Positions 31,131 to 57,358 of a stretch of 64,000 nucleotides of DNA are shown piece by piece. The position numbers and the translations under genes were made by a program. Under the pieces are notes generated by a model. The model had not been told where the DNA came from. It saw nothing but the letters and a program-made list of their open reading frames with translations, and searched no databases. Where the stretch lies: the NCBI GenBank assembly GCA_002305115.1, contig DBQF01000001.1, positions 437,767 through 501,766 on the forward strand, read 5' to 3'. Positions within the stretch are counted from its first letter, which is position 1, and every line of letters starts with the position of its first letter. The stretch comes from a candidate division WWE3 bacterium UBA1401. Its GTDB lineage: Bacteria > Patescibacteriota > WWE3 > UBA101185 > UBA10185.

Positions 31131-31673
31131 TCCTCCATTTTTTACAAGTCTAAAATTTGTCAGTGGGTAATATACCATAAAGGCTCGGCCGATAATGTTT
31201 TCTGCCGGAACAGCACCCCATTCTCTTGAATCTATGCTATTGCTTCTGTTATCACCCAGTAGAACATAGCTGTTTTCAGGGATCTGATAAGTTGTATCTT
31301 CCTTTATTACTCTTTTGCCTCTCGTTTGATTTTGTTCATGTACATAAGGTTCTTCTAGTGGTTTTCCATCCAGCAAGACTTTACCCTGCGAGATTATGAT
31401 GGTTTCTTTTGGCATACCTACAACCCTTTTAATGACAAGTTTTTTAGGATATTCAGGGTGTTCAAAAATCACTATATCTCCTCTTTGAATTGGTCTAAAG
31501 TTTAGGGAGATTTTTTCTGCAACTAGTTGTTCTTTGTCGTGAAAGTTGGGTAGCATGGAGTTGCCACTTACGATCATAAGTTCGCCTAAGAAGGTATTGA
31601 CTACAAAGAATATTGCGCTGCCGATGAGTAGTACTTCAAGTGAGTCTTTTAAGAATTTCAGGAGTGGTTTCAT
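31122..31673 (-). CDS. lepB: Signal peptidase I
   Basis: Catalytic Ser box GNSMLPNF, Lys box [11 protein letters not shown], and [11 protein letters not shown]. Confidence 0.9.
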
Positions 31674-31702: not shown

Positions 31703-31772
31703 AAACCTGGCCGTGCCATTCGTAGCAGGTGATAGAGCTTTTTGTCCTACTTCATCCGCCTGCGGCGGATGG
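31703..31772 (-). repeat. tRNA-linked structured repeat, copy C (shortened variant)
   Basis: Contains the exact 20-mer catccgcctgcggcggatgg (31753..31772). The far end ctggccgtgccattcgtagc is homologous to copies A and B. Confidence 0.65.
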
Positions 31773-31778
31773 TGGGCG

Positions 31779-31807
31779 CGCTTAGCGAGCCTCCCCCACG
31801 CTAAGCG
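31779..31807 (-). other. 9-bp hairpin abutting the CCA of tRNA-Val
   Basis: cgcttagcg (31779..31787) pairs with cgctaagcg (31799..31807), with an 11-nt loop. Confidence 0.7.
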
Positions 31808-31884
31808 TGGTGGGTCTATCTGGATTCGAACCAGAGGCCTCTGCAATGTGAATGCAGCGCTCTAACCAGCTGAGCTATAGACCC
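31808..31884 (-). tRNA. tRNA-Val (anticodon CAC), CCA encoded
   Basis: Minus strand reads GGGTCTATAGCTCAGCTGGTTAGAGCGCTGCATTCACATTGCAGAGGCCTCTGGTTCGAATCCAGATAGACCCACCA. The cloverleaf folds by hand. Confidence 0.9.
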
Positions 31885-38938: not shown

Positions 38939-39094
38939 GATTTTGTTTGATCTTTCCTTTAGTTACAGCAAATGCGAAGTTTTTACGAATATATGTATAT
39001 AGGTGGTATATTGGATTGTGATGATAAAGGTGTAGGTTGTGTGTAAATTTGCTAGCTGCTTGCCACGCTTGCCTGCTAGTACGCAGGCGGATGG

Positions 39095-39169
39095 TGGAGC
39101 CGATGGGGGGATTTGAACCCTCGACCCATCCCTTACGAAGGGATTGCTCTACCACTGAGCTACATCGGC
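39095..39169 (-). tRNA. tRNA-Thr (anticodon CGT), CCA encoded
   Basis: Minus strand reads GCCGATGTAGCTCAGTGGTAGAGCAATCCCTTCGTAAGGGATGGGTCGAGGGTTCAAATCCCCCCATCGGCTCCA. There is one A-C mismatch in the T stem. Confidence 0.85.
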
Positions 39170-39191
39170 ATGACTTATTGTAGATTATAGC

Positions 39192-39815
39192 TTATTTTTT
39201 GCGATTGTAGAAATAAAAAATGCCAAAAAATGTGGCAAATCCAAACAGATACCCACCGATCACATCTGTTAGCCAATGTGCCCCTAGTGATATACGGGAT
39301 ATGCCCACTAGCGCAATTAAGCCGACTGAAAAGATACCCATAACATCTTGTAAACCAGGATATTTTGCCCATATGGCTTTACGTAAGGAATATATTGTTC
39401 CGAAAAAAACAGTATAGCCAAAAACATGACTTGATGGGTAACAGTATGTTCTTGGTAAAACTGCATAAAACAGCTTTCTAATTTCATTCGGGTTGGGGCA
39501 GGGAACTTGAAATAGTTGCTTCAGGAGTGACGGTATAACTAAAGTGAGTGTAGCTATTATCAGAGTTAATGCCAGATGCTTTTTGTTTTGTCTAGCCAAA
39601 TAAAATGCTAAAGCAATACCGATTAGTGGTAGATAATAGCTTATTTGTGAAACAAGGCAGTTAAGCTGGATGATTGTATGTGTTTGTCCTTGCTGGATGA
39701 GTATGCTTGTTTGGTAGTTTAGATAAACAATCTGCGGGTTCTTTGCGAGGATGCCAATTATTATGCCGGTTATTGTTAGGACAAGCCCTAATCTTAAGAG
39801 TTTTGATTTAGGCAT
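39192..39815 (-). CDS. PAP2-family phosphatase (lipid phosphate/undecaprenyl-diphosphate phosphatase type)
   Basis: Motifs YPSSHVFGY and SRISLGAHWLTDVIGG. Polytopic. Confidence 0.8.
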   Translation of the reverse strand: MPKSKLLRLGLVLTITGIIIGILAKNPQIVYLNYQTSILIQQGQTHTIIQLNCLVSQISYYLPLIGIALAFYLARQNKKHLALTLIIATLTLVIPSLLKQLFQVPCPNPNEIRKLFYAVLPRTYCYPSSHVFGYTVFFGTIYSLRKAIWAKYPGLQDVMGIFSVGLIALVGISRISLGAHWLTDVIGGYLFGFATFFGIFYFYNRKK

Positions 39816-40281
39816 CTATTAGTTGGTTAATTTGGTAAAACAGGTCTGTGTTGTTTGTGTAGTGAATAGTAACCAGTCCAGCTATTTGGGCGGCTTCAAT
39901 AAATGCTTGTGAATCATCGATAAATAGGGTTTCTTCTGGTTTGATATTTAGCAAAGTTGTGAGTTTTGTGTAGGCCGACGGGTCTTTTTTAGATATGCCT
40001 AGCTCTGCTGCAGAAAAAATTTTTTTGAAGACGGGTTGTATAAAGGGTAGCAGTTCCGGAGCTTCTTGGATGTAGCCGCTTGTGAAGATGTATAAGTCTA
40101 GTTTTGATTTAAGTGAGGTATAAAAGTCCAGTATTTCGATATTGATCTGGAAGTAGTCTAGTGGGTTGTAGTCTGGTGCGTGGCGTAGTTGTTGGTGTAG
40201 TTCGTTAAGCCCACTTTTGTATTCAGGGTTTTTTGGAAAGAGTATTACGTTTGAAAAATCACTGATTAGTGTTTTGGTCAT
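39808..40281 (-). CDS. HAD-superfamily hydrolase
   Basis: N-terminal SDFSNVI (motif I variant), and FIDDSQAFIEAAQIAGL (motif IV region). Confidence 0.65.
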   Translation of the reverse strand: MTKTLISDFSNVILFPKNPEYKSGLNELHQQLRHAPDYNPLDYFQINIEILDFYTSLKSKLDLYIFTSGYIQEAPELLPFIQPVFKKIFSAAELGISKKDPSAYTKLTTLLNIKPEETLFIDDSQAFIEAAQIAGLVTIHYTNNTDLFYQINQLIDA

Positions 40282-40323
40282 ATCTTAAGTTTTCTAGTCT
40301 ACAGTAGATTTAACGTAGGCGGA

Positions 40324-40399
40324 TGGAGCGGGTGACGGGTTTCGAACCCGCGACCTCTTCCTTGGGAAGGAAGCGCTCTACCAACTGAACTACACCCGC
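40324..40399 (-). tRNA. tRNA-Gly (anticodon CCC), CCA encoded
   Basis: Minus strand reads GCGGGTGTAGTTCAGTTGGTAGAGCGCTTCCTTCCCAAGGAAGAGGTCGCGGGTTCGAAACCCGTCACCCGCTCCA. Confidence 0.9.
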
Positions 40400-40489: not shown

Positions 40490-40972
40490 TTACGGGATAA
40501 TTAACGTCTGTCCTGCGTAGATCAATGCTTGTTGGCCGGAGGGTAGGTAGCCAATGTTTGCTGCATTTGCCTCAAGTATCTTTGTCCATTCTGCGCCACT
40601 CCCATAGGCTGCTTCGGCTATTTCCCAAAGAGTATCTCCCGACTTAACACTATATTCACCAGTGCTAATTTGTCCTTGCTCATAGTTTGTTGCGCTCCAC
40701 TCGGTTGCTTCAGCAGGTTCTTGGCTTGGTTGTGCCTCTTCCATTACTGTCTCTGTTTCCTCTGTTTGTTCTCCTTCTGTTTCTTGTTCTTCCCCTCTCT
40801 CGGTATTTGATGATATGGTTTCGCCGTTGGTTTCATTTTGGTTGTTGTCTATACCTGTGTTGTTATTCCTATTGAAGTAGTTATATGTTGCGAAGAGCAG
40901 TGCAAGGATAAATAGTCCGCCTACAATGAATGCTTGGATATCTTTTTTAGTTTGATTCGGATCCGTTGCCAT
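40490..40972 (-). CDS. Membrane-anchored LysM-domain protein
   Basis: N-terminal TM, an acidic E/T/Q-rich linker, and a C-terminal LysM (YSVKSGDTLWEIAEAAYG...YAGQTLIIP). SD AGGGGGTG. Confidence 0.75.
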   Translation of the reverse strand: MATDPNQTKKDIQAFIVGGLFILALLFATYNYFNRNNNTGIDNNQNETNGETISSNTERGEEQETEGEQTEETETVMEEAQPSQEPAEATEWSATNYEQGQISTGEYSVKSGDTLWEIAEAAYGSGAEWTKILEANAANIGYLPSGQQALIYAGQTLIIP

Positions 40973-41022: not shown

Positions 41023-41138
41023 TGGCTGTGCCATCCAAAGCGTTAACAGTAAAAGGTTATGTTAACTTCAGACAGGTCCTTCTTCGCTACGCCCTACCTG
41101 CCGGCAGGCAGGTACGAAGGACATCCGCCTGCGGCGGA
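41023..41138 (-). repeat. tRNA-linked structured repeat, copy A (longest; carries a 22-nt extra palindromic hairpin 41093..41114)
   Basis: Aligns with copy B over its whole length (see findings). Its 20-mer catccgcctgcggcggatgg (41122..41141) overlaps the tRNA-Asp CCA. Confidence 0.75.
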
Positions 41139-41215
41139 TGGCGGGACCGACGGGTCTCGAACCCGCGACCTCTTCCGTGACAGGGAAGCGCTCTAACCAA
41201 CTGAGCTACGGCCCC
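41139..41215 (-). tRNA. tRNA-Asp (anticodon GTC), CCA encoded
   Basis: Minus strand reads GGGGCCGTAGCTCAGTTGGTTAGAGCGCTTCCCTGTCACGGAAGAGGTCGCGGGTTCGAGACCCGTCGGTCCCGCCA. Confidence 0.9.
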
Positions 41216-51079: not shown

Positions 51080-51099
51080 GAAAGCCTCGCCCCCTAAAT

Positions 51100-51131
51100 C
51101 CCCCTCTCCATGGGCATTCATGGAGAGGGGG
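51100..51131 (+). other. Perfect 13-bp G/C-rich hairpin 21 nt after the polA stop, followed by G-runs instead of a U-tract
   Basis: CCCCCTCTCCATG-GGCATT-CATGGAGAGGGGG, then ACAGGGGGTAGGGGGGTATAGGAGGAGAGG. Confidence 0.75.
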
Positions 51132-51272
51132 ACAGGGGGTAGGGGGGTATAGGAGGAGAGGTGTTAATTGCTTCTTTTGTTTTAACAACAATGAATTACC
51201 TTCACTTGTTTTAAAATTCCTTTTAGGAAGGCCAGAAAACATTATCAGATAAATTGCATGAGTGCTAGAAAG

Positions 51273-56102: not shown

Positions 56103-56119
56103 GAAAGGTCAGACCTTTC
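56103..56119. repeat. Perfect palindrome GAAAGGTC-A-GACCTTTC
   Basis: Shares the core AAAGGTCnGACC with the two direct repeats at 56180 and 57132. Confidence 0.8.
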
Positions 56120-56179
56120 AAATGCAAAATGTCTTTGTAACAAACTTCTCATAACTATAAGACTGAAAACTGAGGACAT

Positions 56180-56202
56180 AAAGGTCTGACCCTGCGTTTG
56201 GT
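56180..56202 (+). repeat. Direct repeat copy 1 (23 nt exact): aaaggtctgaccctgcgtttggt
   Basis: Identical to 57132..57154. Looser similarity extends about 12 nt upstream (tgagg.a.ataaa). Confidence 0.85.
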
Positions 56203-56514: not shown

Positions 56515-57141
56515 ATGTGTGCACCTGTTACTCATTTACTTCTGGCTCAGCAAATTAGAAGGAAATATTTTGCTGACTCGCTCGCATTGCCTTACTATTC
56601 AGGTACTTTATTTCCTGATATTAGACATTATGTAGGTCTTGGAAAATCTATCACTCATGATCTTAACAAAAAGATTTCTTCTCTAATATCAATGTCGGAC
56701 TGGTATAAAGGTTTTTGGGTACACTCGATTGTGGATCAAGTTCATCAAACATATATGGTTCCCAAAGATCCAAGTTCTTTAAGCCCCAAACCTCGGTACA
56801 TGGCTTACGTGTTATTGGAAGACCAGGTATTTTATCCTGAGGCACATAACATAGTTGATAGCAATGCCTATAAGATCACGTATTTCACTGAAGAAGATGA
56901 TTTCGGCATCAGCGCACTTCAGTTAAGAGAATATAAAAGTTTTGTTACGGATTATCTTAGTGTGAGTCCGAATTATGCAAGGCAGATAAGATTCTTAAAG
57001 GAGACTGTTCCCGAGGTTTCAGCTCCTGGTTATATAGAGGCAATGGAAGAGTATTTTAATGGGATTAATAACGAGAAAGTAGTAAATGACATATATAGTT
57101 TAAGAACAAATTTTTTAAGTGAGGTAGATAAAAAGGTCTGA
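56515..57141 (+). CDS. Putative metal-dependent hydrolase (zinc phospholipase C-like fold)
   Basis: N-terminal THLLLAQQI, GTLFPDIRH and KGFWVHSIVDQVH resemble the His/Asp pattern of the zinc-dependent phospholipase C family. The last codons lie inside direct repeat copy 2. Confidence 0.5.
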   Translation: MCAPVTHLLLAQQIRRKYFADSLALPYYSGTLFPDIRHYVGLGKSITHDLNKKISSLISMSDWYKGFWVHSIVDQVHQTYMVPKDPSSLSPKPRYMAYVLLEDQVFYPEAHNIVDSNAYKITYFTEEDDFGISALQLREYKSFVTDYLSVSPNYARQIRFLKETVPEVSAPGYIEAMEEYFNGINNEKVVNDIYSLRTNFLSEVDKKV

Positions 57142-57154
57142 CCCTGCGTTTGGT
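57132..57154 (+). repeat. Direct repeat copy 2 (23 nt exact)
   Basis: aaaggtctgaccctgcgtttggt. It overlaps the stop codon of the hydrolase-like ORF. Confidence 0.85.
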
Positions 57155-57187
57155 TGTAGGTACGGGAAGGAGTGATTAAGAACTGCG

Positions 57188-57283
57188 TGGCTGTGCCATC
57201 CGAAGCATTAACAGTAACAGTTTGTGTTAACATCAGACAAGTCCTTCTTCGCTACGCTTCGAAGGACATCCGCCTGCGGCGGA
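57188..57283 (-). repeat. tRNA-linked structured repeat, copy B
   Basis: tggctgtgccatccgaagcattaacagtaacagtttgtgttaacatcagacaagtccttcttcgctacgcttcgaaggacatccgcctgcggcgga. Its 20-mer (57267..57286) runs into the tRNA-Lys CCA. Confidence 0.75.
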
Positions 57284-57358
57284 TGGTGAGGGCGGAGAGG
57301 ATCGAACTCTCGACACCCTGGTTAAAAGCCAGGTGCTCTACCACTGAGCTACGCCCCC
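57284..57358 (-). tRNA. tRNA-Lys (anticodon TTT), CCA encoded
   Basis: Minus strand reads GGGGGCGTAGCTCAGTGGTAGAGCACCTGGCTTTTAACCAGGGTGTCGAGAGTTCGATCCTCTCCGCCCTCACCA. Confidence 0.9.

Follow-up and report, generated by a model that had tools for sequence, protein, structure and literature searches.

Palindromic repeats anchored on the 3' CCA of tRNA genes in a WWE3 bacterium: a possible mosaic family

REP/BIME repeats (repetitive extragenic palindromes and the bacterial interspersed mosaic elements built from them) are found in enterobacteria and pseudomonads, where they are mobilised by RAYT transposases. Small palindromic repeats of this kind are a familiar feature of mitochondria and of the large genomes of free-living organisms; to our knowledge, there is hardly any account of them from the extremely reduced genomes of the candidate phyla radiation (CPR), which have little intergenic space, and we found nothing specific in the literature on tRNA-trailer repeats of CPR or Omnitrophota. 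Here we analyse a 64-kb stretch (the window; 40% GC) of contig DBQF01000001.1 of the candidate division WWE3 bacterium UBA1401, in which a repeat follows the 3' CCA of tRNA genes. The element has no match among catalogued RNA families or transposons and is best described as a tRNA-CCA-anchored variant of the small palindromic intergenic repeats. All copy counts below refer to the window, and element sequences are read on its minus strand, which is the tRNA-sense strand. Like REP/BIME, the tRNA-trailer repeat consists of short GC-rich imperfect palindromes, extragenic and located after transcription units, which combine with other short motifs into mosaics of 100-150 nt, have a genome-specific sequence and would be transcribed as RNA hairpins able to block exonucleases. 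Unlike REP/BIME, its palindrome stands in a fixed register with the tRNA CCA and, in the window, behind tRNAs only; its first module (the head) starts with CCAT and lacks a GTAG-type tetranucleotide, no RAYT (Y1 transposase) gene was seen among the window open reading frames (ORFs) examined, and the same palindrome occurs in another phylum.

The GC clusters of yeast mitochondria are a second close parallel. In compact, AT-rich genomes they form GC-rich palindromes that are transcribed, differ chiefly in their loops, merge and shuffle, and have short repeats at their ends (PMC8811140); in the account that PMC8811140 gives of Yin et al. 1981, GC-rich PstI palindromes flank tRNA genes in Neurospora mitochondria. 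The tRNA-trailer repeat shares with the GC clusters the GC-rich palindromes in an AT-rich compact genome, the position beside tRNA genes (often so in the clusters), transcription (putative here), the concentration of substitutions in loops, and merged or nested units; the short terminal direct repeats are TAG or AG in the clusters and CCA in our element (PMC8811140). A role as processing signal and as hot spot of recombination has been suggested for both. Unlike the GC clusters, our repeat is bacterial, its sequences are unrelated to theirs and its mobility is only putative.

Bacterial MITEs (miniature inverted-repeat transposable elements) that measure about 100-150 bp (Correia/NEMIS, RUP, ERIC/IRU, Rickettsia palindromic elements) are also of similar size, non-coding and intergenic, fold as RNA, are co-transcribed with their neighbours and vary by internal deletions and insertions. 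In MITEs, however, the terminal inverted repeats are clear, the target duplications are defined (TA, for example) and there is a cognate insertion sequence, whereas the inverted similarity in our element is sub-terminal, with 8-10 matches in 12, and CCA is its only candidate duplication. Finally, RNAs from tRNA 3' external transcribed spacers (3'ETS), such as 3'ETS-leuZ of E. coli, likewise lie directly downstream of a tRNA, are transcribed with it and are released by processing (putative for our element). 3'ETS-leuZ is, in contrast, a single-locus, Hfq-bound sponge with known partners and not a repeated palindromic module.

Copies of the repeat and a head motif behind all five tRNAs

The minus strand carries all five tRNA genes of the window (ARAGORN, with which Rfam agrees), and on the same strand we found two full copies of the repeat, A and B, and a shortened one, C (Table 1). 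As a sequence-only reading of this DNA had proposed, A and B align from end to end: over the first 27 nt identity is 100% (blastn E = 4e-10), and over the last 70 nt it is 90% (E = 4e-19). The upstream boundary is sharp, being preceded by two different tRNA acceptor ends, and the flanks are unrelated beyond ...CACAGCCA. The sole difference in length is a 20-nt gap in B, at the position where A has a perfect palindrome and B has 'AA'. The head hairpin CATCCGCC-GCA-GGCGGATG is present exactly three times (41122-41140, 57267-57285 and 31753-31771; 0.00 expected), and the tail GGATGGCACAGCCA is seen once each in A, B and, with two mismatches, C (0.24 occurrences expected); the interior 17-mer GCGTAGCGAAGAAGGAC occurs in A and B only. 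The repeat is real and beyond chance. The elements have 52-56% GC against 40% for the window, and six of the eight perfect GC-rich hairpins (>=7 bp, >=60% GC) in the 64 kb lie within tRNA trailers.

Copy C had been said to keep both ends around a shorter interior, and this was confirmed: its head is identical to that of A and B over 20 nt, its tail GAATGGCACGGCCA (31708-31721) matches at 12 of 14 positions, and the interior between them consists of AAGTAGGAC and about 22 unrelated nt. The same reading had the repeat fused to the tRNA 3' CCA. This is so for A and B, whose first three bases are shared with the CCA of their tRNA; C, however, lies 35 nt downstream of the tRNA-Val CCA, behind another hairpin and with its own '...cgcccaCCA' ahead. 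Since this 35-nt insert ends in CGCCCA, it has CCCACCA on both of its sides. We also note a resemblance between the 'CGCGCCCA-CCA' ahead of copy C and the 3' end of a tRNA-Val of the GGGCG type, an example of which is found in Omnitrophota at locus L018 (see below).

The beginning of the head is more widespread than the long copies. The 9-mer CCATCCGCC is found six times (0.17 expected), and five of these occurrences are at the 3' ends of the five tRNAs, tRNA-Thr and tRNA-Gly included, so that every tRNA of the window has it. At tRNA-Asp, tRNA-Lys and tRNA-Gly the CCA of the motif is the tRNA's own; at tRNA-Thr the motif is placed after the tRNA's CCA, which doubles it (CCACCATCCGCC), and at tRNA-Val after the separate 35-nt hairpin unit. 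The remnants at tRNA-Thr and tRNA-Gly, 13 nt each, both end one base into the second arm. The tRNA-Gly remnant is the inverted reading of a head-hairpin variant with a GTA loop that we found in Omnitrophota, and the tRNA-Thr remnant has the GCA loop. Past the former lies unrelated sequence, and past the latter unrelated sequence with a GCCTGC-GTACTA-GCAGGC hairpin. Because the head motif is present at five of five tRNAs, and because the head hairpin is common to tRNA trailers of another phylum, a modular palindromic family is favoured over a single 100-nt unit.

The sequence-only reading had called for a search for further copies. None was found: blastn-short and a covariance model of the element (R1, run with filters off) recovered only A, B and C across the window, and no further full copies turned up in the species genomes or JGI metagenomes described below. 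With two or three copies and nothing more found by R1, one may ask whether there is a family at all: an ordinary trailer or terminator hairpin could have been copied once, by segmental duplication or gene conversion between tRNA trailers, to give A and B, and the head 20-mer is indeed also a generic terminator-like palindrome in many unrelated phyla. We consider this very unlikely. No U-tract follows the hairpins, and a terminator scan is empty there; the 9-mer is found at all five tRNAs, and three loci at distances of 10-16 kb have head and tail in common; a series of events is implied by the nested palindrome and by the stumps, which are truncated and inverted; and the CCA is the exact point at which identity sets in, rather than a place within the tRNA or the flank.

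Table 1. Positions of the tRNA genes, repeat copies and their parts in the window (numbered from its first nucleotide).
Feature	Position	Strand	Description
tRNA-Val(CAC)	31808-31884	-	35 nt upstream of copy C
Insert between tRNA-Val CCA and copy C	31773-31807	-	35 nt; 9-bp hairpin CGCTTAGCG-N11-CGCTAAGCG, then CGCCCA
Copy C	31703-31772	-	shortened version; model R1, 24.1 bits, E = 0.001
tRNA-Thr(CGT)	39095-39169	-	followed by head remnant
Head remnant, tRNA-Thr	39082-39094	-	CCATCCGCCTGCG; first 13 nt of head palindrome in inverted sense
tRNA-Gly(CCC)	40324-40399	-	followed by head remnant
Head remnant, tRNA-Gly	40314-40326	-	CCATCCGCCTACG; fused to tRNA CCA
tRNA-Asp(GTC)	41139-41215	-	own CCA is first 3 nt of copy A
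Copy A	41023-41141	-	119 nt, starts with CCA of tRNA-Asp; model R1, 144.7 bits
Copy A, H1	41122-41140	-	
Copy A, H2	41076-41122	-	
Nested palindrome	41095-41114		TACCTGCC-GGCA-GGCAGGTA; perfect 8 bp, 4-nt loop, H2 apex, copy A only
Copy A, H3	41033-41073	-	
Copy A, tail hairpin	41024-41032	-	
tRNA-Lys(TTT)	57284-57358	-	own CCA is first 3 nt of copy B
Copy B	57188-57286	-	99 nt, starts with CCA of tRNA-Lys; model R1, 116.4 bits
Copy B, H1	57268-57284	-	
Copy B, H2	57241-57267	-	
Copy B, H3	57198-57238	-	
Copy B, tail hairpin	57189-57197	-	

The LysM gene starts at 40972, 50 nt beyond copy A, the signal-peptidase gene (lepB) at 31673, downstream of copy C, and a HAD gene at 40281, downstream of the tRNA-Gly remnant. 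Copy B has no downstream gene on its strand, and a convergent ORF ends at 57141. The PolX gene adjoins tRNA-Asp and encodes a protein that matches best to proteins from 'candidate division WWE3' and other Patescibacteria, and the neighbours of tRNA-Lys encode RlmN-like, SOD, L19 and IleRS proteins. Two other repetitive features were seen. A 28-nt repeat, GAYAWAAAGGTCTGACCCTGCGTTTGGT, is present with 93% identity at 56175-56202 and 57127-57154, where two ORFs of the plus strand end, a short way downstream of copy B, with a related palindrome, GAAAGGTCAGACCTTTC, at about 56103-56119. Between polA and clpB (51099-51132) lies a perfect 14-bp GC-rich hairpin, TCCCCCTCTCCATG-GGCATT-CATGGAGAGGGGGA, which is followed by a G-rich run and has no U-tract.

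Predicted fold and transcription of the trailers

On the tRNA-sense strand, copy B is predicted to form four consecutive hairpins, with the minimum free energy (MFE) structure identical to the centroid; the same holds for a pre-tRNA-Lys with B attached, which gives a correct cloverleaf followed by the four hairpins. The first hairpin (H1) has a predicted 7-8 bp and takes in the C-A of the CCA. In H2, GUCCUUC/GAAGGAC closes a GAA/GAA internal loop and a GC-GUA-GC tip; H3 has 6 + 7 bp and an 11-nt loop, and the tail forms a hairpin of the UGGC-ACA-GCCA type. In copy A the nested palindrome is added at the tip of H2, so that the elements have four or five hairpins in all. The perfect 8-bp hairpin that had been described for the H2 apex of A is there, but the apex of B is a 13-nt segment, GAAGCGUAGCGAA, and not 2 nt as had been thought; the palindrome of A, 20-22 nt long, replaces 'AA'.

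The proposed stems do pair: on the A/B alignment all 72 base-pair cells are paired across the two copies. The claim that stems are conserved while loops vary also held, as two of the seven A/B substitutions fall in the 64 paired columns and five in the 33 unpaired ones (one-sided Fisher p = 0.043). The covariation check, in contrast, gave zero compensatory changes, only two one-sided G-C/G-U changes. Several G-U pairs of H3 would be A-C mismatches if read on the other strand, and the fold z-scores are modest (-2.4/-2.2 in the sense and -1.9/-1.4 in the antisense direction). Together these results favour an RNA fold on the tRNA strand, as modelled from only two sequences, which hence allow no real covariation test.

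The element is non-coding, as had been supposed: a single ORF (57030-57233) overlaps B, and its ATG is missing from A. A scan at all copies detected no promoter-like or terminator-like consensus inside the elements. The head hairpin is followed by GTCCTTCG, no U-tract follows the hairpins at any copy, and thus none of the copies has the GC-rich hairpin plus U-tract of an intrinsic terminator. Promoter-like sites are located upstream of tRNA-Asp and tRNA-Lys, and the scan revealed none in the intervals that separate the LysM gene from tRNA-Asp and lepB from tRNA-Val. Copies A and C therefore probably lie within tRNA-mRNA co-transcripts.

A comparison with Rfam had been named as a check, and the element matched no known family. 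Rfam 15 at the gathering score reported tRNAs only; in permissive scans of the A and B loci, the tRNAs and a single antisense match across the tRNA-Lys gene, which is spurious, were all that reached E < 1. At the element itself no tRNA was called by ARAGORN or by the tRNA model of Rfam, and we rejected a degenerate tRNA or tRNA-like gene. Pairing between leader and trailer was also rejected, since GGCGGA is present in none of the four tRNA leaders read (Asp, Lys, Thr and Gly).

The earlier proposal of a structured RNA co-transcribed with the tRNA thus fares well in that the element is hairpin-rich and pairs better on the tRNA-sense strand, but not in covariation, of which there is none. A stronger version of it holds that the element is a selected RNA, the head being a signal for tRNA 3' processing, protection or stability through sequestration of the CCA, and the long form a functional structured trailer or a 3'-ETS-like small RNA freed from the tRNA precursor. 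The strict orientation and register relative to the tRNA, the clean predicted fold, the loop-biased substitutions (p = 0.04) and the G-U pairs, which fit only an RNA of tRNA sense, argue for it. Other properties do not suit a constrained non-coding RNA: A tolerates a 20-nt palindrome in H2, C does without H2 and H3, and the 13-nt stumps at tRNA-Thr and tRNA-Gly cannot form the hairpin. With zero compensatory pairs, no Rfam match and fold z-scores of about -2 as well, we regard selection as RNA as an unlikely explanation, although some of the related loci described below speak for it.

Related loci and hallmarks of mobility

We compared four syntenic WWE3-like loci (L062, L071, L072 and L073), whose PolX proteins are 59-61% identical to that of the window and which share its tRNA-Asp/Gly/Thr/Val surroundings. 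Gene order is kept (GH18, polysaccharide genes, NTP-transferase, tRNA-Thr, tRNA-Gly, LysM, tRNA-Asp, PolX), and neither CCATCCGCC nor the element was found at any of the four (L062 was scanned, and the trailers of all four were read). A comparison of filled and empty tRNA loci had been suggested; the element is indeed lacking from all four, but these are not clean empty sites, because their trailers are unrelated in sequence and of comparable length. Model R1, run over 18 related loci, gave weak matches only, driven by the head hairpin. Two of the relatives' 13 tRNAs have CCA-starting hairpins of unrelated sequence, CCAGATAG-AAAA-CTATCTGG at tRNA-Asp of L062 and one of 7 + 6 bp at tRNA-Gly of L072 (each p about 0.01-0.02 against shuffles). 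These hairpins support selection as RNA; most tRNAs of the close relatives, in contrast, do without the element, which is thus not a core requirement.

Two spots of this region differ within the lineage. The interval between tRNA-Gly and tRNA-Thr (39170-40323 of the window) is variable: the distance from one tRNA to the other is 12-48 nt in L071 and L073 and about 370 nt in L072, L062 has four small ORFs in this place, and the window has a HAD hydrolase and a PAP2 gene there; in the window, the left junction of the interval directly follows the 13-nt head stump. tRNA-Val(CAC), between the GH18 and signal-peptidase genes, is on opposite strands in L073 (1288-1364) and the window (31808-31884); as the acceptor stem differs as well, this locus has been rearranged or replaced in one of the two lineages.

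Scanning of 185,579 genomes, one per species (596 Gb), and of JGI metagenomes with the exact 20-mer of the head gave matches none of which had the A/B interior. Most were rejected as chance or irrelevant, being terminator-like palindromes or coding sequence of unrelated phyla. A coherent subset remained in Omnitrophota: four matches are labelled as Omnitrophota metagenome-assembled genomes (MAGs), and for L025 the phylum was confirmed by LigA. There, too, the head is fused to the CCA of tRNAs, namely tRNA-Arg (L007), tRNA-Met and tRNA-Val (L018/L038) and tRNA-Pro (L036 and L044), and it also occurs away from tRNAs (L006 and L010). In L018 the head hairpin sits between two tRNAs only 40 nt apart and therefore cannot be a terminator; an identical 20-mer at tRNA 3' ends of a second phylum, in such a position among others, is a further point for a selected RNA.

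In Omnitrophota the head is followed by other, lineage-specific hairpin modules. The orthologous tRNA-Pro to tRNA-Arg spacers of L036 and L044 have an identical head and different later modules. Duplicated tRNA ends flank hairpin inserts: 21 nt of the tRNA-Pro 3' end are duplicated in L054 (14040-14320), several tRNA-Pro 3' fragments surround inserts in L025 (4550-5270) and L076 (4575-4945), and in L044 (2080-2230, compared with L036) an insert upstream of tRNA-Arg bears a hairpin and is flanked by two copies of the tRNA's first 8 nt (GCGCCTGT). The 16-nt core of the nested palindrome of copy A, CCTGCCTGCCGGCAGG, is present in L025 as well (1021-1040), between 16-nt direct repeats. Rfam gave no match for the element on the Omnitrophota trailers.

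Some features of these loci stand by themselves. In L006 (3658-3720) and L010 (6612-6687), which belong to one Omnitrophota MAG, the head is preceded by 'aaaat', and CATTTGTCATTAACTT appears 30-60 nt later; in this MAG CATTTGTCATTAACTT is another repeat family, located upstream of genes. L076 has a hairpin-rich insert of about 90 nt within the T-loop of a partial tRNA-Pro copy. The Omnitrophota tRNA-Pro loci also contain repeated YCCGAG...CGAGGR stems, which would hold tandem G-A pairs.

We then compared the element with described classes of mobile DNA. The sequence-only reading had given it CCATCC/GGATGG termini; on the plus strand the distal end reads CCATCC(G/A)AAGC(A/G). Terminal inverted repeats at both ends, as in MITEs, were not found: the inverted tail matches the head CCATCCGCCGCA at 10 of 12 positions in B (CCATCCGAAGCA), 8 of 12 in A (CCATCCAAAGCG) and 9 of 12 in C (CCATTCGTAGCA), and this similarity is not terminal, because 8 more conserved nt (CACAGCCA) lie beyond the tail copy. 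Each of the three copies has a CCA in front and another as its end, both in direct orientation; this end reads GCCA at every copy irrespective of the tRNA discriminator, and the flanking CCA may therefore be part of the element rather than a target duplication. A fixed left neighbour CCA and a GCCA end would suit an element derived from IS200/IS605 (palindrome-associated transposable element, PATE), but no TnpA gene was seen among the window genes examined, and the left hairpin, TCCGCC-GCA-GGCGGA, is unrelated to the right-end hairpins GTTAACA.../TGGC-ACA-GCCA. Attachment sites of an integrative element were not apparent either, as only 3-7 nt are repeated (CCA and CCCACCA), no integrase was found among the window genes examined, and the neighbours are housekeeping genes in conserved synteny; a genomic island or integrase at tRNA-Lys was rejected on its neighbours. 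A phage or att origin was likewise rejected, since IMG/VR contained nothing related: the head has 0 matches in its viral contigs, and matches to the interior and tail are coding-sequence coincidences. The palindromic and mosaic make-up of REP/BIME, in contrast, is one that the repeat shows: the head is a short GC-rich imperfect extragenic palindrome of 8-9 bp with a 3-nt loop, and the combinations of H2, H3 and tail vary among A, B and C as in a mosaic.

A true non-autonomous transposon, either a MITE or another cut-and-paste or single-stranded DNA (ssDNA) element, that inserts at the tRNA CCA with the help of a transposase encoded elsewhere in the genome, and that may have been exchanged between Patescibacteria and Omnitrophota, would account for several of these observations. 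Near-identical copies are found at unrelated tRNA loci and are lacking in relatives; a 3-bp target duplication could explain why A, B and C have CCA at each end, and the CCACCA at tRNA-Thr looks like an excision footprint; the head and tail show inverted similarity; and the same head is present at Omnitrophota tRNA ends, together with tRNA-terminus duplications (8 and 21 nt) around hairpin inserts. The ends, however, are short, imperfect and sub-terminal or, for an IS200/IS605-type element, dissimilar, given the constant GCCA a target duplication is not required to explain the flanking CCA, no transposase, integrase, reverse transcriptase or other mobility gene was found near the copies or among the window genes examined, and no copy was found in viral contigs. 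We therefore think that such a transposon is unlikely. Of the earlier suggestion of a miniature mobile element that targets tRNA 3' ends, the anchoring on the tRNA CCA stands, and the MITE hallmarks are weak, with 8-10 of 12 sub-terminal matches, no clear duplication beyond 'CCA' and no transposase nearby.

A mosaic family and its possible role at tRNA 3' ends

The reading that we tentatively prefer, with a probability of about 0.45, is a mosaic palindromic repeat family, similar to REP/BIME or to mitochondrial GC clusters, that takes the tRNA CCA as its anchor and is transcribed together with the tRNA as a structured trailer. It is suggested by the modularity of the element, which exists in nested, deleted, inverted and truncated forms, and by GC-rich palindromes in an AT-rich compact genome. 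The presence of the repeat in one lineage only among syntenic relatives, and its strict register on the tRNA CCA and the tRNA-sense strand, point the same way, as does the recurrence of the head in a second phylum, in which small inserts with hairpins are gained and lost at the borders of tRNAs.

In such a family the first module would be the head palindrome CCATCCGCC-GCA-GGCGGATG(G), the 5' arm of which begins with the tRNA's own CCA. Joined to H2, H3 and the GGATGGCACAGCCA tail, it would make up the 100-120-nt composite at tRNA-Asp and tRNA-Lys and, in shortened form, that at tRNA-Val, with 13-nt stumps left at tRNA-Thr and tRNA-Gly. The modules may spread and reshuffle as DNA between tRNA 3' ends, either by recombination or template switching, with the shared CCA and head palindrome as anchor, or by a trans-acting enzyme encoded elsewhere. 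Modules in tRNA sense would then be transcribed within the pre-tRNA or the tRNA-mRNA co-transcript and may fold as RNA into stable hairpins, the first of which would sequester the terminal C-A of the CCA. If the terminal C-A is paired in the precursor, maturation would require an endonucleolytic cut at the CCA and not exonucleolytic trimming. After such a cut the LysM (copy A) and signal-peptidase (copy C) mRNAs downstream would begin with a hairpin, and 5'-terminal hairpins are known as stabilisers of bacterial mRNAs. The co-transcription of the element, its spread and any benefit that it brings are inferred.

Several observations weigh against the mosaic family. Only two full copies and one short copy are visible, plus two stumps, and 'family' rests on 64 kb; the mobility genes sought near the copies and among the window genes examined were not found. 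Nor is there a recent presence/absence polymorphism, the nearest relatives being too distant (after the window's own, the next-best PolX match is 65% identical). The CCA hairpins of L062 and L072 suggest that selection may act on the presence of a CCA hairpin as such, and together with the exact conservation of a 20-mer across two phyla they favour a functional RNA signal over selfish DNA. A bolder idea, which we consider a long shot, is a so far undescribed class of elements that find their way to the 3' CCA of many different tRNAs by reading the tRNA end, for example in a reaction at the level of RNA or ssDNA, and that have moved between the ultra-small-cell phyla Patescibacteria and Omnitrophota, dragging lineage-specific hairpin modules along. 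An equally novel alternative at the same long odds would be a shared signal for a route of tRNA 3' maturation that cuts precisely after a base-paired CCA.

If the mosaic repeat is neutral, it would be a source of assembly breaks, of mis-called small ORFs (such as 57030-57233) and of false 'novel ncRNA' predictions in MAGs of CPR and Omnitrophota. If it is mobile, bacteria would have in it an element for which tRNA ends serve as safe places to insert, as they do for retroelements of eukaryotes. A repeat locked to the CCA bears directly on how tRNA 3' ends are matured from tRNA-mRNA co-transcripts in CPR; for every tRNA in the window, the terminal two bases are predicted to be paired in the precursor.

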